A DNA stretch of 64,000 bases from an uncultured Cetobacterium sp. Lineage in GTDB: Bacteria > Fusobacteriota > Fusobacteriia > Fusobacteriales > Fusobacteriaceae. How positions within the stretch are numbered: the stretch's first letter is position 1; every line of letters starts with the position of its first letter. The position numbers were made by a program, and so were the translations under genes. The DNA is taken from positions 6,832-70,831 of the forward strand of contig NZ_CAMFHX010000005.1 in the NCBI RefSeq assembly GCF_945952365.1, written 5' to 3'. The notes below the pieces were generated by a model that saw only the letters and a program-made list of their open reading frames with translations, was not told the DNA's origin and made no database searches. Shown here piece after piece: positions 32,657 to 39,655 of the stretch.

Positions 32657-32743
32657 TGGTGCCTGAGGGGGGACTCGAACCCCCAAGGTGTTAGCACCGG
32701 CGGATTTTGAGTCCGCTACGTCTACCAATTCCGTCACTCAGGC
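32657..32743 (-). tRNA. tRNA-Leu (anticodon CAA), class II with long variable arm; CCA encoded
   Basis: 7-bp acceptor stem GCCTGAG/CTCAGGC. Anticodon loop CU-CAA-AA. Long variable arm. T-loop GGTTCGAGTCC. 3' CCA. Confidence 0.9.
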
Positions 32744-33309: not shown

Positions 33310-33555
33310 TTAATAGTTGTATCTTCTTCTATAATAGTTCTTTTGTCTTTCATGACCTATAGCCGATCCTGCTAAAGCACCTATCCCTGCTCCTATCAAT
33401 GTACTTGTTGTGTCTCTACCTATAAGCTGTCCAGCAATAGCTCCAACAGCTGCTCCACCTACTGCATTTCTTCGAACATAAGGTGTATTATAAGAAGCAG
33501 AACATCCAACTAAAATAGAGATTAAAACTGAAAGAAAAACCAATCTTTTTAGCAT
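33310..33555 (-). CDS. Glycine-zipper (YMGG/17-kDa-antigen-like) small lipoprotein
   Basis: Signal peptide with lipobox LVGCSAS. Gly-zipper GAAVGAIAGQLIG...GAGIGALAGSAIG. Confidence 0.5.
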   Translation of the reverse strand: MLKRLVFLSVLISILVGCSASYNTPYVRRNAVGGAAVGAIAGQLIGRDTTSTLIGAGIGALAGSAIGHERQKNYYRRRYNY

Positions 33556-33660
33556 AAAAACCTCCTCTAATAAAAAATAATAAAGCTTAAAATATCTTAC
33601 GAAATTGAAGGAAGAGTTCCTTCTAAAAAACTAACTCTAATTTGCTTAAGAAAAAAATTC

Positions 33661-33689
33661 TTGACTTTTTAATCTTTTAATACTATGAT
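33661..33689 (+). promoter_or_regulatory. Sigma70-type promoter upstream of the leader peptide and ABC transporter
   Basis: TTGACT, 17 bp, TATGAT. Confidence 0.5.
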
Positions 33690-33718
33690 TAATGAATAAA
33701 AAAACTTAGGAGGAAAAT

Positions 33719-33772
33719 ATGTCACAACTGTTCGTTAATTTAAACACATTACATCATCATCATAGATATTAG
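33719..33772 (+). CDS. 17-codon leader peptide MSQLFVNLNTLHHHHRY with four consecutive His codons (not in the supplied ORF track)
   Basis: RBS AGGAGG 6-7 nt upstream of the ATG. CAT x4 at 33752-33763. Followed by alternative hairpins and a terminator. Confidence 0.45.
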   Translation: MSQLFVNLNTLHHHHRY

Positions 33773-33875
33773 AGTTTGTTACTATGAATTTTCGTAGATA
33801 CAGGCTCTTGTTGTTTTGACTTGAGTCTGTATCTATGGTGTGTGAATAACGAAGAAAGTAAACATATTTTCTTGA

Positions 33876-33913
33876 AGCCATCTAGATACGTCTAGGTGGC
33901 TTTTTTGTTTTTG
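33876..33913 (+). terminator. Attenuator terminator: 11-bp stem AGCCATCTAGA/TCTAGGTGGCT followed by TTTTTTGTTTTTG, 24 nt before the transporter RBS
   Basis: Stem plus U-tract read directly. The upstream hairpin 33795-33835 and the segment 33827-33838 can pair alternatively with the terminator left arm. Confidence 0.5.
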
Positions 33914-33936
33914 TGAATTTATACGGAGGTTATATT

Positions 33937-34698
33937 ATGAAAAAACTATTTAAACTTTTATTTTTAACACTTACTATTTTTACTACAACTTTCTCGAAAG
34001 AAAACTCTTTAGAGAAGATACAAAAAAAAGGCGAAATTATTATTGGTCTTGATGATACCTTCGCACCTATGGGATTTAAAGATGAAAATGGAAACATCAT
34101 TGGATTTGATATTGATTTAGCTAACGAGGTTGCTAAAAGAATTGGAGTTAAGGCTACATTTAAGCCAAGTGAATGGGATGGAATTGTCTTTGCTTTAAGA
34201 AGTAAAAAAATCGATTTAGTTTGGAACGGGATGACAATAACCCCCGCTAGAGAAAAGCAGATTCTTTTCTCTGAACCTTATTTCAATGATGACCAAATAG
34301 TTATTGTAAAAAATAGCTCTATTCAAACTTTAAACGACTTACAATCTAAAAATATTGGTGTTCAAATGGGAAGTACATCACACTTCGCTTTTGAAGCTTC
34401 AAAATATTCAAAAGATGCTAAAGAGATAAAAAAATACTCTACAAATGTAGAAGCACTTTTAGATTTAGAAGCTGGTAGAACAGATGCAGTTATTATGGAT
34501 GCGGTTGTTGGAAGATACTATATAGCTAAAAAAGATGGGTTCACTGTTTTAAATGAAGCAATCGCTAGAGATAAAATGGCAGTCGGTCTTAGAAAAGAGG
34601 ATATCTCTTTAAAAAATGAGATTGATAAAACTTTAAATGATATGAGAGCTGACGGAACATTTAAAGATATATACACAAAATGGTTTGGAGATAAATAA
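33937..34698 (+). CDS. Polar amino-acid ABC transporter substrate-binding protein (family 3). True start is probably the ATG at 33937 after the GGAGG RBS.
   Basis: Signal peptide, then the SBP_bac_3 pattern (IIGLDDTFAPMGF, EWDG, VWNGMTIT). Confidence 0.85.
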   Translation: MKKLFKLLFLTLTIFTTTFSKENSLEKIQKKGEIIIGLDDTFAPMGFKDENGNIIGFDIDLANEVAKRIGVKATFKPSEWDGIVFALRSKKIDLVWNGMTITPAREKQILFSEPYFNDDQIVIVKNSSIQTLNDLQSKNIGVQMGSTSHFAFEASKYSKDAKEIKKYSTNVEALLDLEAGRTDAVIMDAVVGRYYIAKKDGFTVLNEAIARDKMAVGLRKEDISLKNEIDKTLNDMRADGTFKDIYTKWFGDK

Positions 34699-35324
34699 TG
34701 GAAAATAACTTAATATATATACTAAAAGGTTTAAACCTTACATTAAAACTTTACTTTTTCACACTGATTTTTGCACTTCCTTTCGGTATTCTATTATCAC
34801 TTGGAAGAGTTTCAAAATCAAAACTACTAAACAATAGTATCCAAATATACACTTGGATTTTTAGAGGAACTCCTCTTTTACTACAGCTTTTCTTTGTTTA
34901 TTATGGTCTACCTGTAGTTGGTATAACTCTTGAACCATTTAATGCAGCTTTAATAACTTTTGTCATCAACTACTCTGCTTATACATGTGAGATTTTCAGA
35001 GGAAGTATTCTTGGAATAAACAAAGGGCAGTATGAAGCTGCCACAGTTTTAGGATATAACTATTGGCAAACTATGTTTAAAGTTATTCTTCCTCAAAGCT
35101 TAGTTACAGCTCTTCCATCTTTATCAAATGAAGCTATATCTCTTGTGAAAGATACATCTTTAATCTCGGCTATAGGTATGGCAGAGATTCTGAGAAACTC
35201 TAAAGAGATTGTAACTAGAGAGTTCAATATAACTCCTTTTATTCTTTGTGCAGGAGTTTACTTAACGCTTTCAACAATTATAATTTTTATATTAAAAAAT
35301 ATTGAAAAAAAGGTGAATGTATAA
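34698..35324 (+). CDS. Amino-acid ABC transporter permease (HisM/GlnP-like)
   Basis: Five TM segments. EAA-like loop EAATVLGYNYWQTMFKVILPQ. Confidence 0.85.
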   Translation: MENNLIYILKGLNLTLKLYFFTLIFALPFGILLSLGRVSKSKLLNNSIQIYTWIFRGTPLLLQLFFVYYGLPVVGITLEPFNAALITFVINYSAYTCEIFRGSILGINKGQYEAATVLGYNYWQTMFKVILPQSLVTALPSLSNEAISLVKDTSLISAIGMAEILRNSKEIVTREFNITPFILCAGVYLTLSTIIIFILKNIEKKVNV

Positions 35325-35917
35325 TGGGTATTAAAGTAAAAAATTTAAATAAAACTTTTGGAGATAGTGTTGTTTTTAAAAATTTAAATCTAGAGATTGA
35401 AAAAGGGGAGATTGTATCTATAATAGGTCCTTCAGGTCGTGGAAAATCAACTTTTTTAAGATGTGTAATAGGTTTAGAAACTTATGATTCTGGTGAAATC
35501 ATTTGCAATAGAAAAAAAATGGGAATGGTTTTCCAAAACTTCAATCTTTTTCAAAATAAAACAGTTTTAGAAAATATTGTTGAACCTTTAATCTTAGTTG
35601 ATAAATTAGATAAAACTACTGCTAAAGACAGAGCCATATCTCTTCTACAAAAAGTTGGATTAGAGGATAAAAAAAATTCATATCCTAAATATCTTTCTGG
35701 TGGCCAACAACAAAGGGTTGCTATAGCAAGAGCTCTTGCTAAAGAACCTGAAGTTCTACTCTTTGATGAACCTACATCAGCTCTTGATCCTTTCATGACA
35801 AATGAGGTTCTTAAGGTTATAGAGGAGTTAAAAAATAGTAGCGATATCACAATGGTTATTGTGAGCCACGAGATGGATTTTGTAAAAAAAATCTCTACTA
35901 GGATAATTGAATTTTAA
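35324..35917 (+). CDS. Amino-acid ABC transporter ATP-binding protein (short, 197 aa)
   Basis: Walker A GPSGRGKST, signature LSGGQQQRVAIARAL, Walker B LLFDEPTSALD. Confidence 0.85.
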   Translation: MGIKVKNLNKTFGDSVVFKNLNLEIEKGEIVSIIGPSGRGKSTFLRCVIGLETYDSGEIICNRKKMGMVFQNFNLFQNKTVLENIVEPLILVDKLDKTTAKDRAISLLQKVGLEDKKNSYPKYLSGGQQQRVAIARALAKEPEVLLFDEPTSALDPFMTNEVLKVIEELKNSSDITMVIVSHEMDFVKKISTRIIEF

Positions 35918-36030: not shown

Positions 36031-37242
36031 ATGAAAAAACTTAGTAGTAGTACAGCAATAATTATTTCTATGATATTAGGTATAATATCTGGAATTTTCT
36101 TACAGGAAAAAGCAGTTATCTTTGCACCTTTGGGAGATCTTTTTTTAAAACTAATTACAATGCTAATAGTTCCGTTAGTATTTTTCAATATCATTCTTGG
36201 AGCTATGTCTCTTGGAAAAACAAAATCAGCAGGAAAAGTTGGTTTCTTAACTTTAAGTTATTATTTGGTAACATCATGTATTGCAGTAGTTATTGGAATA
36301 GGTGCTGGATATATCTTTAATCCTGGAGTTGGAATAGTAGTTCCTGCATCACTATTAGCAAAAGATGGAGCTTTCGCAGCTGCAACAACAAACCCTGGAT
36401 TCTGGAGCACAATTTTAAGTATGATTCCAGATAATCCATTTAAATCATTGATTGAGGGAAATATTCTTCAAATTATATTCTTCTCTCTTTTCTTTGGAAT
36501 CTGTATGTCTAAACTACCTGATGAAAAACAAAAACCAGTTGTCGATATTTTAGAAACGATAAATGATACTTTAATAAAAATGGTTGAGAAAATACTTTTA
36601 GTTGCACCGATAGGAGTTTTTGGTTTAATGGCCAACTCGATAGCACTATTTGGAATAGAAATTTTAGTGTTAGTTACAAAACTATTCTTAGTGTTCTCAT
36701 TGGCACTAGCTTTAATTCATTTTGGAATGTTACCAGGACTTGTAAAATTATTTACGGGTATCTCTCCAATAAAGTTTATTAAAAAAACAGCCCCAGCTCA
36801 GATTTTAGCTTTCTCTACAGCTTCATCTATGGCTGCTTTACCTGTAAACACAGAATGTTGTAAACAACTTGGAGTTAAAAACTCTACGGCTTCATTTATT
36901 TTACCTCTTGGAGCTACTGTTAATATGAATGGAAACTCAATGCTATATGGACTTCTTGCTATGTTCTTTGCTCAGATGTTCAATATAGAATTAGGACCCG
37001 TTCAATACATTGGAATAGTTTTAACATCTGTTCTTGGAGCAGTTGGAACTGCTGGAGTTCCTGGACCATCACTTCTTGTTGTAGCTGTTCTAGCTACTGC
37101 TGGAATCCCAGTTGTCGCTTTACCATTAGTTTTTGGAATCGATAGAATTATGGATATGATGAGAACATCTACAAACATCTTAGGAGATGCTTCTTGTGCA
37201 GTTATTATGGAAAATATTTTATCTAAGGATGAAAATCAGTAA
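36031..37242 (+). CDS. Dicarboxylate/amino-acid:cation symporter (DAACS, GltP/SstT-like)
   Basis: About 400-aa polytopic protein with DAACS motifs (GAMSLGK, PLGATVNMNG, GIPVVALPLVFGIDRIMDMMRT). Confidence 0.8.
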   Translation: MKKLSSSTAIIISMILGIISGIFLQEKAVIFAPLGDLFLKLITMLIVPLVFFNIILGAMSLGKTKSAGKVGFLTLSYYLVTSCIAVVIGIGAGYIFNPGVGIVVPASLLAKDGAFAAATTNPGFWSTILSMIPDNPFKSLIEGNILQIIFFSLFFGICMSKLPDEKQKPVVDILETINDTLIKMVEKILLVAPIGVFGLMANSIALFGIEILVLVTKLFLVFSLALALIHFGMLPGLVKLFTGISPIKFIKKTAPAQILAFSTASSMAALPVNTECCKQLGVKNSTASFILPLGATVNMNGNSMLYGLLAMFFAQMFNIELGPVQYIGIVLTSVLGAVGTAGVPGPSLLVVAVLATAGIPVVALPLVFGIDRIMDMMRTSTNILGDASCAVIMENILSKDENQ

Positions 37243-37307: not shown

Positions 37308-38096
37308 CTACTTAATCTCTCTTCGAACCAACTCTTGAACAGCATACGAAGCTACATCATCAGCATAAGTTCCAGTTCCAAACCCAGCATCATATCCTAA
37401 CTCTTTTGCAAGCTCATGTGTTATTCTAGCTCCACCACATATAACTAGCATCTTCTCTCTAAGCCCCTCAGCTTCTATCATCTCAATAAGCTCAACTAAG
37501 TTTTTTATATGAACATCTTTTTGAGTTACAGTTTGTGAAACTAAAAGTACATCCGCTTTTATCTCAATAGCTTTTGCTATAAAATCTTCATTCAAAACTT
37601 GACTTCCCATATTTAAAGCTTCTATCATCTCATATCTTTCTAAACCGTAATGCCCTGCATACCCTTTCATATTCATAACTGCATCTATTCCAACAGTATG
37701 AGCATCCGTTCCTGTACTTGCCCCTAAAACTACAATTTTTCTACCTATATTCTCTTTTACAAATTTATCAGTTGCTTCCATCGACCAAGTTGTGGCTTCA
37801 ACTTTTGGAACATATATAGATTCATAATCTACAGTATGTGTACAACTTCCATAGCAGTTGAAAAATGTAAACCCCTCTGTCAGCTCTTTAAAATATGAAA
37901 CTTGTGGATTTAAAAAACCCATCTTTTTCATCAACTGCTTTGCTGCCTCAACTCCTTCGGCTCCTGCTGGAACTGGTAAGGTAAACGAAAGGTGAGTTTT
38001 ACCATCATTCATTGTATCTCCATATGGTTTTACAGCTTTTAAATCCAGTGTTGTATCAAATCCTTTCTCTTCCATTGAATATAATCCACCGCTCAT
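37308..38096 (-). CDS. kamE: D-lysine 5,6-aminomutase beta subunit (B12-binding)
   Basis: 262 aa with a C-terminal B12-binding Rossmann region (GASTGTDAHTVG = DxHxxG motif). Directly downstream of kamD. Confidence 0.8.
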   Translation of the reverse strand: MSGGLYSMEEKGFDTTLDLKAVKPYGDTMNDGKTHLSFTLPVPAGAEGVEAAKQLMKKMGFLNPQVSYFKELTEGFTFFNCYGSCTHTVDYESIYVPKVEATTWSMEATDKFVKENIGRKIVVLGASTGTDAHTVGIDAVMNMKGYAGHYGLERYEMIEALNMGSQVLNEDFIAKAIEIKADVLLVSQTVTQKDVHIKNLVELIEMIEAEGLREKMLVICGGARITHELAKELGYDAGFGTGTYADDVASYAVQELVRREIK

Positions 38097-39655
38097 TACT
38101 TCACCTCTCCTAACATTTTTGAAATAAACAGATTCATATAGTTAGCTTTTTTAGCTACAACTCCAGCTAATCCTTTTCCACCTGTTCTGCTTCTTTTTAT
38201 ATCTGCAAACGTTCCCTTCTCTAAAGAGTTAAACAATCCATCGTGAACCATTTTTTCTAAAAGTTGCACTGATTCCTCTAGAACAGATTGAGCTCTTTTT
38301 TGAATTATTCCATCTGTTTTAAACTCTATTTCAGACCCAAAATCTCTCATGTTGTTGAATATATATCTTGCATTTTCTATTGCTAAATATCTATCAGACA
38401 TAAACGGTGTATGTATAGCTTCTGTCATCATTCCTAAAAGTTGTAACCCTTGTCCTGTCATTATTGCAACTTGATTAAATAGTGCATCTTGAATATGACC
38501 TTTAAAAACATTTCCTGTCATAAATTTTGTCGGTGGCATATATTTTAACGGTGCATTTGGGAAAATCTCTCTTGTCATCTGAGCTTGAGATAACTCTAAA
38601 AGGAACCCATTTTCTAATTCAGGATCAATTTCAAAGGCATGTCCAAGTCCCATCTGCTCCTCTGGTAATCCAGCCATAAATGCAAGTTGTTCATTTATTA
38701 AATCTGAAGCTAAAACAGTATGAGCGTTTTCAACTGCATCTGCCGTTGTTAAATAGTTATCCTCTCCTGTATTTATTATAACCCCTGCAAATCCATTTAT
38801 AACTCTCGAGAAGAATTGATCTACAAGTGTTCTTTGCATATTTATATCTCTAAACAAAATTCCATAAAGAGCATCATTTAACATTACATCCAATCTTTCT
38901 AATGCTCCCATAGCTGCTATCTCTGGCATACATAATCCTGAGCAGTAGTTACAAAGTCTTATATATCTTCCAACCTCTTCCCCTACTTCATCCAGAGCTT
39001 TTCTCATAATTCTAAAGTTTTCCTGAGTCGCAAAAGTTCCTCCGAACCCCTCTGTCGTAGCACCATACGGTACATAATCAAGTAAACTTTGTCCTGTTGT
39101 TCTTATAACTGCTATTATATCTGCTCCTTGTCGTGCAGCAGCTTGAGCTTGAATAACATCTTCATATATATTTCCAGTTGCAACTATAACATAAAGGTAA
39201 GGTTTTGGTCCCTCTCCTATTCTATTTAAATACTCATCTCTTTTCTCTCTATTAGATTTTATTCTCTCCACCGAAGAGTTCACAAGTGGCTCAATAGCTT
39301 TCTCCACTTTATCTTTCGAATTCTGATTTAATTTTGTTAAATCTAGTTCTCCAGCACTCACTTTTTCCGCTATCTCTTGCGGAGACAATCCAGTTTCCAA
39401 AATAGCATTTCCTATAAAGTACATAACCCCCTCAGATAAAACCCCTTTATCTTTTAGATGATCTACAACTATATTTGGTAAAGGAACTTCATCTATGTCG
39501 ACTCCATCTATCCCTAGAAGTCTGCATATAGTTCTTTCAACTGCTACTGTTGTATATGAATCCACAAATTTTTGAACATCCATAGCTATATCTTTTGCCA
39601 GCCCTCTAGCTTTCTGAACTTTATTAAAATCTAAACCCAATTTACTTTTAAACAT
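38096..39655 (-). CDS. kamD: D-lysine 5,6-aminomutase alpha subunit
   Basis: 519-aa TIM-barrel-type subunit in the lysine fermentation cluster. Overlapping start/stop with kamE. Confidence 0.8.
   Translation of the reverse strand: MFKSKLGLDFNKVQKARGLAKDIAMDVQKFVDSYTTVAVERTICRLLGIDGVDIDEVPLPNIVVDHLKDKGVLSEGVMYFIGNAILETGLSPQEIAEKVSAGELDLTKLNQNSKDKVEKAIEPLVNSSVERIKSNREKRDEYLNRIGEGPKPYLYVIVATGNIYEDVIQAQAAARQGADIIAVIRTTGQSLLDYVPYGATTEGFGGTFATQENFRIMRKALDEVGEEVGRYIRLCNYCSGLCMPEIAAMGALERLDVMLNDALYGILFRDINMQRTLVDQFFSRVINGFAGVIINTGEDNYLTTADAVENAHTVLASDLINEQLAFMAGLPEEQMGLGHAFEIDPELENGFLLELSQAQMTREIFPNAPLKYMPPTKFMTGNVFKGHIQDALFNQVAIMTGQGLQLLGMMTEAIHTPFMSDRYLAIENARYIFNNMRDFGSEIEFKTDGIIQKRAQSVLEESVQLLEKMVHDGLFNSLEKGTFADIKRSRTGGKGLAGVVAKKANYMNLFISKMLGEVK

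Follow-up and report, generated by a model that had tools for sequence, protein, structure and literature searches.

A Histidine-Codon Leader Upstream of an ABC Importer

What is the role of a run of histidine codons, followed closely by a chain of mutually complementary RNA segments, in front of an amino-acid ABC transporter? This question is raised by a locus within the 64-kb stretch of DNA analysed here (the window). The data below suggest that the element is likely a ribosome-mediated leader-peptide transcription attenuator, which would read the charging of tRNA-His and control an ABC importer for polar amino acids that is encoded by three genes and very probably takes up histidine. The first-pass annotation of this DNA had placed such a system in a histidine-fermenting host that it called Fusobacterium-like; the description should read Cetobacterium-like instead.

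All features described here are on the forward (+) strand. A sigma-70-type promoter (33661–33689) comprises TTGACT at 33661–33666, a 17-nt spacer and TATGAT at 33684–33689, with 10 of 12 consensus matches. Transcription is predicted to start approximately 22 nt ahead of a leader ORF (33719–33772) of 17 codons plus UAG, with the product MSQLFVNLNTLHHHHRY, and would then proceed through the six RNA segments defined below. The ATG of this ORF (33719) lies 5 nt beyond the Shine-Dalgarno sequence AGGAGG (33708–33713), and its putative regulatory codons are four consecutive CAU (His) codons at 33752–33763. This run is the single occurrence of (CAY)4 in the whole 64 kb. The promoter, the strong ribosome-binding site and the 17-codon ORF with four CAT codons had all been read from the sequence beforehand, and each was found at its position. 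The element is framed by this promoter and by an intrinsic terminator, both strong, the latter separating the leader ORF from the first structural gene. This gene encodes a polar-amino-acid ABC substrate-binding protein (SBP_bac_3; 33937–34698), which starts at the ATG at 33937 behind a GGAGG ribosome-binding site (33925–33929), and is followed by an ABC permease (BPD_transp_1; 34698–35324) and an ABC ATPase (35324–35917). The ATPase is short (197 aa), and likewise in other Cetobacterium loci.

The nearest NCBIfam families to these proteins are the cystine, glutamine and LAO systems, all under cut-off, and HisJQMP is no closer. The evidence for histidine specificity, which is very probable, is all regulatory. 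Homologous operons with the same gene order in Tissierellia, Trichococcus and Carnobacteriaceae are preceded by T-box leaders scoring 102–132 bits; the five aligned examples (L045, L050, L069, L073 and L074) all have CAC, and thus His, as the specifier. The T-box-controlled homologues are 41–48% identical in the substrate-binding protein and permease, and 37–45% in the ATPase. His-specifier T-box leaders ahead of amino-acid ABC transporters have been described in Firmicutes (Wels et al. 2008, PMC2494555). The presence of His-specifier T-boxes on homologous Firmicutes transporters is independent evidence for tRNA-His control, and lends support to the initial guess that the operon serves histidine uptake.

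Six Segments Form a Chain of Alternative Helices

The leader RNA was divided into six segments. Segment 1 (33758–33769) contains the last His codons and AGAUAU. Segment 2 (33771–33787, AGAGUUUGUUACUAUGA) has the second base of the stop codon as its first nucleotide, and its partner in an anti-P1 hairpin is segment 3 (33792–33808), through 33771–33779 with 33800–33808 and 33782–33787 with 33792–33797. The conserved box AGAGUUUGU (33771–33779) already starts within the stop codon; this box and YUAUGA build a 15–16 bp hairpin with the left arm of P1. That arm, UCGUAGAUACAGGCUCU, constitutes segment 3, whose partner is either segment 2 or segment 4. Segment 4 (33823–33840) comprises the right arm of P1 (33823–33837) and a 3-nt tail, and has three possible partners: segment 3 to form P1, segment 5 to form the antiterminator, and segment 1. 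Segment 5 (33874–33890) includes the left arm and loop of the terminator, of which the antiterminator portion (33879–33889) pairs with segment 4, and segment 6 (33891–33912) consists of the terminator right arm (33891–33903) and the U-tract T6-G-T5 (33901–33912).

The neighbouring pairings 2:3, 3:4, 4:5 and 5:6 are therefore all possible, and 1:4 in addition, with energies far beyond those obtained with shuffled partners for all five helices. P1 spans 15 bp (33793–33807 with 33823–33837) and a 3-bp apical extension; its presence had been called previously, as a smaller hairpin of 13 bp at 33795–33835. The terminator was likewise recognized with its stem and U-tract, at an extent of 11 bp (33876–33913), where we find 13 pairs (33874–33886 with 33891–33903) running into the T6-G-T5 tract. 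The claimed pairing of a P1-side segment with the terminator left arm is real: helix 4:5 (33829–33840 with 33879–33889) has 11 bp with one bulge at −12.1 kcal/mol. Helix 1:4 in the window, in which segment 1 pairs with the tail region of segment 4 (33829–33840), has 12 bp at −14.4 kcal/mol. The region 33696–33936 as a whole folds at −73.4 kcal/mol (z = −7.2), with equally good folds in 0 of 200 shuffles, and CAYCAYCAYCAY is present in one copy in the window, against a shuffle mean of 0.05. A fourfold recurrence of TAGATA(C) was also borne out, with the first copy shifted from 33764 to 33763: TAGATAY or its complement is located in the leader at 33763, 33795, 33829 (complementary strand) and 33883, such that four copies fall inside 127 nt, against a window count of 51 per 64 kb.

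The Leader Is Conserved in at Least Four Genera of Fusobacteriaceae

The same arrangement was found before the orthologous SBP–permease–ATPase operon at 13 further loci, which represent 12 distinct sequences (the leaders of L089/L090 and of L091/L092 are identical pairs) and at least four genera, namely Cetobacterium, Fusobacterium, Psychrilyobacter and Propionigenium. The orthologous loci feature a TTGACA-17-TATnnT promoter in the matching place, and GGAG or GAGG is found 5–8 nt ahead of the start codon in 13/13 tabulated leaders, as well as in L335. Each locus, the window included, possesses 4–6 His codons near the stop. The His run is unbroken in the window and at 11 of the other 13 loci, where Arg (with or without Tyr) and the stop codon come next; L087 and L335 feature clusters interrupted by one Asn or Gln each (HHNHHR and HQHHHI, respectively). 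The leader ORF and the His cluster within it persist at these loci, as the proposal of a functional leader peptide had called for. The rest of the peptide diverges: the N-termini differ in both sequence and length, with 10–15 codons ahead of the His run. The chance of a shuffled N-terminal sequence being free of stop codons is 0.17–0.67 per locus, and approximately 3.5e-5 across eight divergent lineages, which shows that the reading frame has been kept open. Moreover, the ORF, its Shine-Dalgarno sequence, the His cluster and the stop-adjacent box are kept together in 14/14 loci with the element.

The alternative helices are conserved alongside the codons. The 2:3 hairpin is present in 13/13 folded leaders at −14.4 to −17.7 kcal/mol, and in L335 at −14.0 kcal/mol, with its onset 1–4 nt past the first base of the stop codon. 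The MAFFT alignment goes wrong at the stop-adjacent box as well as in the upper 2:3 stem, and pairs in these parts were counted per sequence with C(A/G)UAG as anchor. Counted in this way, one 2:3 pair outside P1 occurs as three Watson-Crick types (A:U in seven sequences, U:A in two and C:G in one). Lower-stem pairs of 2:3 are exchanged between GC and AU in L088, and in L335, read by eye, a change in segment 3 is matched in both segments 2 and 4. Across 13 sequences, the proportion of paired cells is 90.8% for P1, 91% for the terminator, 97% for the 4:5 core of nine pairs and 92% for 1:4, against 12–52% in slid controls for the alternative helices; in the same 13 sequences, shuffle controls were not significant for the pairing conservation of P1 and 4:5. 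Compensatory changes were detected at five terminator pairs, and within helix 1:4 the choice between CAU and CAC co-varies with A or G in the segment 4 tail (UA to CG). Covariation is otherwise sparse because the paired blocks are approximately 90% conserved in sequence. The mutually exclusive pairings proposed from the window alone are thus upheld by their energies and by conserved pairing.

F. perfoetens, Ilyobacter polytropus and two other loci have no such leader ahead of the closest homologue. ORF and regular-expression scans detected neither the motif nor a His leader upstream of substrate-binding-protein homologues at 74 loci beyond Fusobacteriaceae. Rfam searches at the gathering threshold detected no motif or His leader in 37 non-Fusobacteriaceae loci, where only His T-boxes were identified. 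Veillonella upstream regions contain a small ORF encoding HHHW, without similar structure. No further copies were found within the 64-kb window, nor did blastn match the leader to any plasmid sequence searched.

Ribosome Position Would Select Between Terminator and Antiterminator

From these elements we infer translation of the leader ORF, stalling of the ribosome upon it, kinetic trapping of the RNA and a response to histidine. If histidine is scarce, the ribosome would halt once a CAU codon occupies its A site, covering segment 1. Segment 2 (AGAGUUUGU...YUAUGA) would stay free and take the left arm of P1 (segment 3), leaving segment 4 with the terminator left arm (segment 5) as its sole partner; the terminator would be blocked, and RNA polymerase would continue into the transporter genes. 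If histidine is plentiful, the ribosome would reach the stop codon, where its mRNA channel is predicted to hide the 5′ half of segment 2, and both P1 (3:4) and the terminator (5:6) would form and end transcription. In a leader that is not translated, segment 4 would be taken by either segment 3 or the naked His-codon segment 1 (12–13 bp), and the terminator would again form. The distance of approximately 30 nt between the His codons and P1, raised as a caveat when the element was first noticed, is resolved by the conserved intermediate segment at 33771–33787, which pairs with the P1 left arm.

A ribosome on the first to third His codons with a 12-nt footprint ends short of segment 2. In full-length equilibrium folding with ribosome masks the terminator was retained every time, as is expected for a kinetic switch, and hence only transcripts cut ahead of the terminator right arm are informative; these were used as input for 13 leaders. 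Unmasked, 12/13 leaders show 0 expected bp of antiterminator, and L004 shows 1.2. Masking to 12 nt beyond the His codons yields the 2:3 hairpin and the antiterminator (7–11 expected bp) in 6/13 leaders. With the mask at 15 nt beyond the stop codon, P1 is dominant in 13/13 leaders (8.8–16.2 expected bp), and with the mask at 12 nt the antiterminator is as strong as P1 in L083. This in-silico switch is established, as are the sequence elements, their conservation and their pairing potentials. In the window leader and six others, P1 far exceeds the 2:3 hairpin in stability (−24.6 vs −16.9 kcal/mol in the window) and dominates the equilibrium ensemble whatever the mask. Switching of these leaders requires co-transcriptional kinetic trapping. 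The modeled ribosome geometry, in which the His codons would free the antiterminator path and the stop codon would block it, holds for the window sequence only if such trapping is assumed. The original reading of attenuation that senses tRNA-His charging is therefore supported by conservation and pairing, but not by equilibrium switching of the window's own sequence.

Relationship to Known Attenuators

Classical leader-peptide attenuation is known mostly from proteobacterial and actinobacterial biosynthetic operons (PMC3766115, PMC2965389), and in the literature we found no description of it in Fusobacteria. By analogy, the geometry of the present leader is that of the enterobacterial his and trp leaders. 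hisL of Salmonella and E. coli (RF00514) likewise encodes a short leader peptide containing a His-codon run and has an intrinsic terminator as its output, and helices A:B, C:D and E:F (termination) alternate with B:C and D:E (readthrough), as 3:4 and 5:6 would here with 2:3 and 4:5. In both, an untranslated leader is predicted to terminate by default. However, the two share no sequence or covariance-model similarity: RF00514 gave no match at E ≤ 10 within 33500–34000, or at E ≤ 1 in the whole window. hisL features seven His codons compared with 4–6 here, and controls a biosynthetic operon rather than an uptake ABC transporter, which here is located in Fusobacteriota. It also possesses a strong A:B hairpin, whereas the default-off state of the fusobacterial leader apparently arises through the long-range helix 1:4, in which the His codons pair with the right arm of P1.

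The His T-boxes of Firmicutes resemble this leader in their homologous operon, in the sensing of tRNA-His charging and in the choice between terminator and antiterminator. They differ in that the RNA contacts the tRNA directly, through the CAC specifier and the T-box bulge, rather than by way of a translating ribosome; they lack a leader ORF, and their RNA fold is unrelated. A further parallel is offered by the His leader peptides that Naville and Gautheret (2010, PMC2965389) described in bacilli, ahead of hisS and hisZ paralogues: a predicted His-run attenuator outside Proteobacteria and Actinobacteria that stands in place of the T-box used elsewhere for the same gene family. These belong to another phylum, and have a tRNA synthetase and HisZ as targets where the present leader has a transporter; the comparison is one of description.

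The trpB Motif and Alternative Explanations

If another class of regulatory RNA accounted for the region, a T-box or riboswitch model might be expected to describe it better. We found none: a local search with the T-box model RF00230 at E ≤ 10 and one of the whole window at E ≤ 1 gave no match, and the only Rfam match is the trpB motif (RF04312), which aligns over its full length (model positions 1–107) with 42.0 bits and E = 1.4e-4 in a 501-nt search, a score below the curated gathering score of 59. Among the 12 distinct orthologous leaders, nine match the motif at 40.1–52.4 bits, again all below 59, and L083, L088 and L091 have no match at E ≤ 1. The motif counts over 900 representatives across Firmicutes and Fusobacteria, ahead of amino-acid ABC transporters or trpB, and is an orphan that its authors rank among strong riboswitch candidates (SRC-39-1; Narunsky et al. 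2024, PMC11109978). Its two hairpins, P1 and then an intrinsic terminator, are those seen here, as are the antiterminator within the P1 right shoulder, the conserved ACAGA/UCUGU core of P1 and the UAG/CUA of the terminator stem. The setting also agrees, in the 5′ UTR of SBP_bac_3–permease–ATPase genes in a Cetobacterium-like genome. Unlike our leader, the published form begins at P1, without a leader ORF or stop-adjacent box.

A metabolite riboswitch or protein-binding RNA of the trpB-motif class, in which a ligand or protein on P1 and its ACAGA/UCUGU core would stabilize P1 and thereby permit termination, with the His ORF incidental or a modulator, is the most probable of the alternatives. 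The full-length alignments argue for it, and the sequence conservation of P1 is unusually high, as a binding site would show. Yet this conservation is accounted for by the need of each strand to pair with two or three partners, of which the His codons fix one, and P1 is a near-perfect helix, lacking conserved internal loops or junctions for a pocket. The sub-threshold scores and the co-conservation of ORF, Shine-Dalgarno sequence, His cluster and stop-adjacent box weigh further against it, and the motif's authors themselves allow for a classical attenuator (PMC11109978). We therefore consider a riboswitch improbable. The common ACAGA/UCUGU core does hint at a shared factor or ancestry, beyond what the attenuator model needs. 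Conversely, we tentatively suggest that the trpB motif may represent the 3′ two-thirds of leader-peptide attenuators rather than a riboswitch, with the codon run and the stop-adjacent box that pairs with the P1 left arm lying immediately upstream of where the annotation begins; on that view, the His leader of Fusobacteriaceae would be the first case in which this is visible.

The Rfam-consensus trpB pattern gave two chance matches in viral contigs, and a metagenome scan with the trpB pattern gave at least 120 chance matches, none of those listed with a real hairpin and terminator in an AT-rich context. The family-specific pattern GAGTTTG...ATACAGACTC was rejected as too unspecific, with at least 120 chance matches in viral contigs; the loci from this viral-contig scan, numbered L095 onward, are noise.

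It could also be argued that the leader ORF is translated but couples termination to general ribosome traffic, through translation capacity or stalling on a poly-His nascent chain, rather than to tRNA-His charging. The architecture reads the position of the ribosome, not its cause, and His runs are able to slow elongation by themselves; furthermore, the transporter substrate is not fixed by sequence. However, it is 4–6 His codons specifically that are conserved while the remaining peptide drifts, and exchange between T-box and leader peptide for one gene is documented (PMC2965389). The homologous transporters, moreover, are controlled by His-specifier T-boxes, which are direct sensors of uncharged tRNA-His. 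These data make the ribosome-traffic explanation highly unlikely. The last alternative, a HutP-like, histidine-activated antiterminator protein that opens the terminator from repeated UAGAUA boxes (cf. the Bacillus hut operon), is extremely remote: the host's group ferments histidine and UAG triplets are found at 33763, 33770, 33795, 33883 and 33893, but HutP sites comprise two sets, each with three UAG triplets at 4-nt spacing, and this spacing occurs here in one pair alone (33763, 33770), without a third repeat or second set, the logic of a catabolic operon that is on at abundant histidine is opposite to that of a His-codon leader and of the His T-boxes, and the UAGAUA boxes are fully explained as mutually complementary segments.

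Implications for Amino-Acid Uptake in Fusobacteriota

If the leader is indeed a tRNA-His-sensing attenuator, it would provide a well-conserved example of this mechanism in another phylum, Fusobacteriota. Its regulatory codons would demonstrate that such codons can fix a whole chain of alternative helices, giving rise to riboswitch-like conservation without a ligand. For RNAs like the orphan riboswitch candidate, this would supply a testable mechanism, and could spare a futile search for a ligand. One transporter family would be the target of two independent tRNA-His sensors, the leader peptide and the T-box. This convergence would provide a regulatory argument for assigning histidine to a family of ABC transporters whose substrate could not otherwise be named. 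The attenuator would control uptake, which fits organisms that are reliant on imported amino acids.

Leader architecture and conservation

All elements of the leader lie on the forward strand. A promoter (TTGACT, 33661-66; 17-nt spacer; TATGAT, 33684-89), read from the sequence and scoring 10/12 matches in a consensus scan, is followed by a Shine-Dalgarno sequence, AGGAGG (33708-13), preceding an ATG at 33719. From this start a 17-codon leader ORF, MSQLFVNLNTLHHHHRY, runs to a TAG at 33770-72 and includes four consecutive CAT histidine codons (33752-63), the single (CAY)4 occurrence in the 64 kb. Downstream lie a long hairpin, P1 (33793-807 paired with 33823-37), and an intrinsic terminator, first-listed of six terminator-like sites in the consensus scan, with a 13-pair stem (33874-33903) and a T6-G-T5 tract. 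The leader region folds at -73.4 kcal/mol (z = -7.2 against shuffles), and four TAGATAY boxes share a 127-nt span, compared with 51 in the entire window. Every element listed in the first-pass annotation (promoter, ribosome-binding site, ORF with its CAT run, hairpin and terminator) was found, with two corrections: the P1 hairpin has 15 bp by its coordinates, not 13, and the first of the four TAGATA boxes starts at 33763. The genes 3' of the leader (33937-35917) encode an SBP_bac_3 binding protein (SBP), one permease and one ATPase; the closest SBP relatives are Cetobacterium proteins.

We gathered relatives of the SBP gene from genomes and from assemblies and compared their upstream regions. 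The same arrangement precedes the orthologous operon in 13 further loci (12 distinct sequences), in each of which an ORF of 16-23 codons follows a TTGACA-17-TATnnT promoter, with a GGAG/GAGG Shine-Dalgarno sequence ahead of its start codon, so the proposed conservation of the ORF and its His codons upstream of orthologous transporters holds. The encoded peptides are MSQLFVVLNSLHHHHRY, MSLLFVVLNSLHHHHRY, VFNLVVVLNSLHHHHRY (GTG start) and MFKLSVVLNSLHHHHR in Cetobacterium; MKGNFVLLNLTTIHHHHHR and MKVNFVLLNLATIHHHHHR in Fusobacterium; MKGNFILFNLTTIHHNHHR in F. necrogenes; MKRFLDLSIEQNRLHHHHHR in F. hominis; MLVKGFSLINIIHHHHR in Fusobacterium sp. JB021; MLVNVLAVIKNTIHHHHR at locus L091; MKLVITKNQKNSVTKFHHHHHHR in a Fusobacteriaceae bacterium MAG (L004); MFNKSFLNFITVHHHHHR in Psychrilyobacter; and MFIKISAISTTIHQHHHI in Propionigenium maris. 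Their N-terminal sequence and length vary, while the His cluster and its placement near the stop are constant. In a shuffle test, the chance that the N-terminal frame stays open is 0.17-0.67 per locus and ~3.5e-5 combined across eight divergent lineages.

Two of the His runs are altered, to CAT CAT AAC CAT CAT (HHNHH) in F. necrogenes (L087 2810-2840) and to CAT CAA CAC CAT CAT ATA (HQHHHI) in Propionigenium maris (L335 1260-1283), where Ile replaces the usual Arg after the run. Each has one His codon changed to a near-cognate codon and retains four.

The leader is absent from F. perfoetens, Ilyobacter polytropus, one Fusobacteriaceae MAG, one orphan SBP paralogue and 74/74 non-Fusobacteriaceae loci. 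Upstream of the closest SBP homologues in F. perfoetens (L085 2790-2900) and Ilyobacter polytropus (L005 2200-2330) there is no His ORF, and a related terminator hairpin (AACCAUUUAG...CUAAAUGGUU and GCCAUCUAGC...CUAGGUGG, respectively) directly follows the promoter; the Ilyobacter hairpin region has no Rfam match at E <= 1. These hairpins could be a decayed attenuator or another leader type. A Shine-Dalgarno sequence and a small ORF precede a Veillonella SBP homologue (L027 3811-3894; MVDHHHWGIHEDLQQYMHAFVCMQNEM), but no terminator or alternative-hairpin structure resembling that of the window leader was seen there.

Predicted alternative helices and switching

Alignment of the leaders revealed a strongly conserved box, AGAGUUUGU, directly 3' of the stop codon; the window copy begins at the second base of the UAG. 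Together with the following YUAUGA, this box is predicted to pair with the P1 left arm (in the window, forward strand, 33771-79 with 33800-08 and 33782-87 with 33792-97). The resulting 2:3 hairpin is predicted in 13/13 folded leaders at -14.4 to -17.7 kcal/mol, and also in Propionigenium at -14.0 kcal/mol. The earlier caveat, a gap of about 30 nt between the His codons and P1, is answered by this pairing.

The leader RNA can be described as six successive segments: the His codons with the 3' end of the ORF (1), the stop-adjacent box (2), the left and right arms of P1 (3, 4) and the left and right arms of the terminator (5, 6). Duplex energies, seldom matched by shuffled partners, are -13.5 to -18.7 kcal/mol for 2:3, -12.2 to -26.5 for 3:4 (P1), -8.2 to -14.5 for 4:5 (the antiterminator), -13.8 to -21.2 for 5:6 (the terminator) and -10.3 to -16.5 for an unexpected 1:4 helix of 12-13 contiguous bp. 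Across 13 sequences, paired cells make up 91% of P1, 91% of the terminator, 97% of the 4:5 core and 92% of 1:4, against 12-52% in slid-register controls. Compensatory support for the 2:3 hairpin is modest but real: a loop-proximal pair, outside both P1 and the ORF, is A:U seven times, U:A twice and C:G once, and Psychrilyobacter swaps AU and GC at two lower-stem pairs. The lower stem differs again in Propionigenium with the hairpin retained, and by reading of the sequence its segment 3 change is matched in segments 2 and 4. In the 1:4 helix, synonymous CAC/CAU choice tracks G/A in the segment 4 tail (UA:10, CG:2, UG:1).

Toeprint and footprint studies place the ribosome edge about 12 nt downstream from the first base of the A-site codon. 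A ribosome whose A site is at His1-His3 would reach no further than 33770, masking segment 1 and leaving segment 2 free; with its A site at the stop codon, 33771 to ~33782 would be masked, the entire lower strand of the 2:3 hairpin. We folded transcripts ending just before the terminator right arm with the ribosome-covered nucleotides constrained. Under the His mask, 2:3 and the 4:5 antiterminator formed in six leaders (C. somerae, three Fusobacterium leaders, F. hominis and Psychrilyobacter), with the antiterminator at 7-11 expected bp and P1 scarce. A stop+15 mask made P1 dominant in 13/13 (8.8-16.2 expected bp); at stop+12 the antiterminator still equalled P1 in L083, a Cetobacterium locus. 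Ribosome-free folds gave 0 expected antiterminator bp in 12/13 leaders and 1.2 in L004, the RNA adopting P1, or 2:3 enclosed by 1:4, with the terminator free to form either way. The switching logic is that of the Salmonella his leader (A:B, C:D, E:F versus B:C, D:E); here the 1:4 pairing would set the default "untranslated means off".

Folding with and without ribosome-occluded segments, the check proposed at first pass, showed a switch in six leaders but not in the window leader. There, as in six others, P1 far outweighs 2:3 in stability and remains the equilibrium fold whatever the mask. Switching in such P1-dominated leaders would require the local 2:3 hairpin to form while polymerase is still ~25 nt short of segment 4 and to persist until the enzyme has cleared the U-tract, which is plausible. 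The conserved ORF and His run, the alternative helices and the masked folding in six leaders support the ribosome-mediated His attenuation first suggested, and the element is probably a tRNA-His-sensing leader-peptide attenuator. The six-segment relay in its detail is less certain, though more likely than not.

Transporter substrate and neighbouring genes

NCBIfam assigned no substrate to the transporter, its best matches being cystine, glutamine and LAO systems, all under cut-offs. A T-box core was found 5' of seven homologous loci (Tissierellia, Trichococcus, Carnobacteriaceae), with tblastn identities to the window proteins of 41-46% (SBP) and 45-48% (permease). SBP-permease-ATPase order is shared by six of the seven; the seventh contig ends within the SBP gene. 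In five cases the leader scores above the T-box gathering cut-off (102-132 bits), and all five carry a CAC specifier followed by a purine at the GAA-NNN-R position. ABC transporters under His-specifier T-boxes are already known (PMC2494555), and exchange between T-box and leader peptide on the same gene is a documented pattern (PMC2965389). Since two unrelated putative tRNA-His sensors precede one transporter family, histidine is the likely substrate, which supports the earlier suggestion of a histidine uptake system on the basis of regulation. The His-specifier T-boxes differ in the bulge base expected to pair with the tRNA discriminator base: the bulge reads UGGA in L074 (3604-3641), L050 and L069, UGGU in L073 and UGGG in L045 (3870-3913). 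By standard T-box rules, UGGG suits C73 of bacterial tRNA-His; UGGA and UGGU do not.

The ATPase (35324-35917) has 197 aa, versus 211-246 aa in other genera; relative to the TcyN, HisP and GlnQ models, ~35 C-terminal residues are missing, as is an internal stretch. It is equally short in the three Cetobacterium orthologues whose gene calls were compared (L081-L083), which makes a sequencing artefact improbable. Beyond it on the same strand, after 113 nt, is a gene of the sodium:dicarboxylate symporter family (GltP/DctA-like; 36031-37242); as it is missing from this position in the Cetobacterium loci L081 and L082, it probably lies outside the attenuated operon. Genes for the D-lysine 5,6-aminomutase beta and alpha subunits (OAM_dimer/B12-binding, Lys-AminoMut_A; 37308-39655, reverse strand) converge on the operon, and this lysine-fermentation context is syntenic in L081 and L082. 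Diverging from the leader promoter is a glycine-zipper lipoprotein gene (33310-33555, reverse strand); upstream of it lies a tRNA-Leu(CAA) gene (32657-32743, reverse strand) with its own terminator-like hairpin (32839-32810). Back-to-back riboswitches lie ~1.3 kb 5' of the His leader in L082 (1280-1661) and L083 (1293-1663): a cobalamin riboswitch (reverse strand) precedes a TonB-dependent receptor gene, and a c-di-GMP-I riboswitch (forward strand) precedes a DUF4402 gene. Closely 3' of the transporter operon are a SAM riboswitch in L004 (6191-6292) and an FMN riboswitch in Ilyobacter polytropus (L005 4928-5046).

Relationship to the trpB motif

A T-box or other riboswitch had been named as a competing explanation for the region. 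At curated thresholds, Rfam detected nothing but a tRNA in the whole window, and a permissive search gave no T-box or His_leader match. That search did return a sub-threshold, full-length match to RF04312, the trpB motif, at 33791-33911 (42 bits, gathering threshold 59; E = 1.4e-4 in a local search, 0.018 across the window). This orphan "strong riboswitch candidate" has >900 representatives among Firmicutes and Fusobacteria and usually lies 5' of an uncharacterised amino-acid-type ABC transporter; its model comprises P1 and a terminator and puts an antiterminator in the P1 right shoulder, and its authors consider a protein factor or classical attenuator possible (PMC11109978). Full-length matches occur in 9/12 distinct orthologous leaders at 40-52 bits. 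As none reaches 59, the His leaders fall outside the trpB family by the curated criterion, and a scan of 37 Firmicutes and other loci found no above-threshold trpB motif 5' of this SBP family. By sequence the leaders do look related to the motif, sharing the P1 core ACAGA/UCUGU, the terminator-stem UAG/CUA pairs and the general layout.

Reviews place amino-acid attenuators mainly in gamma-proteobacterial biosynthetic operons (PMC3766115), and we found no literature description of leader-peptide attenuation in Fusobacteria. The element would extend classical ribosome-mediated His attenuation to a further phylum and to an uptake transporter, by way of a putative six-segment relay and a predicted long-range pairing of the His codons with the P1 right arm; it overlaps a published orphan motif. 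Because the His codons dictate the sequence of segment 1 and segment 4 pairs with segments 1, 3 and 5, segments 3, 4, 5 and 6 would be fixed in turn, and these chained pairing demands offer a simple explanation for the strong, riboswitch-like conservation seen here.
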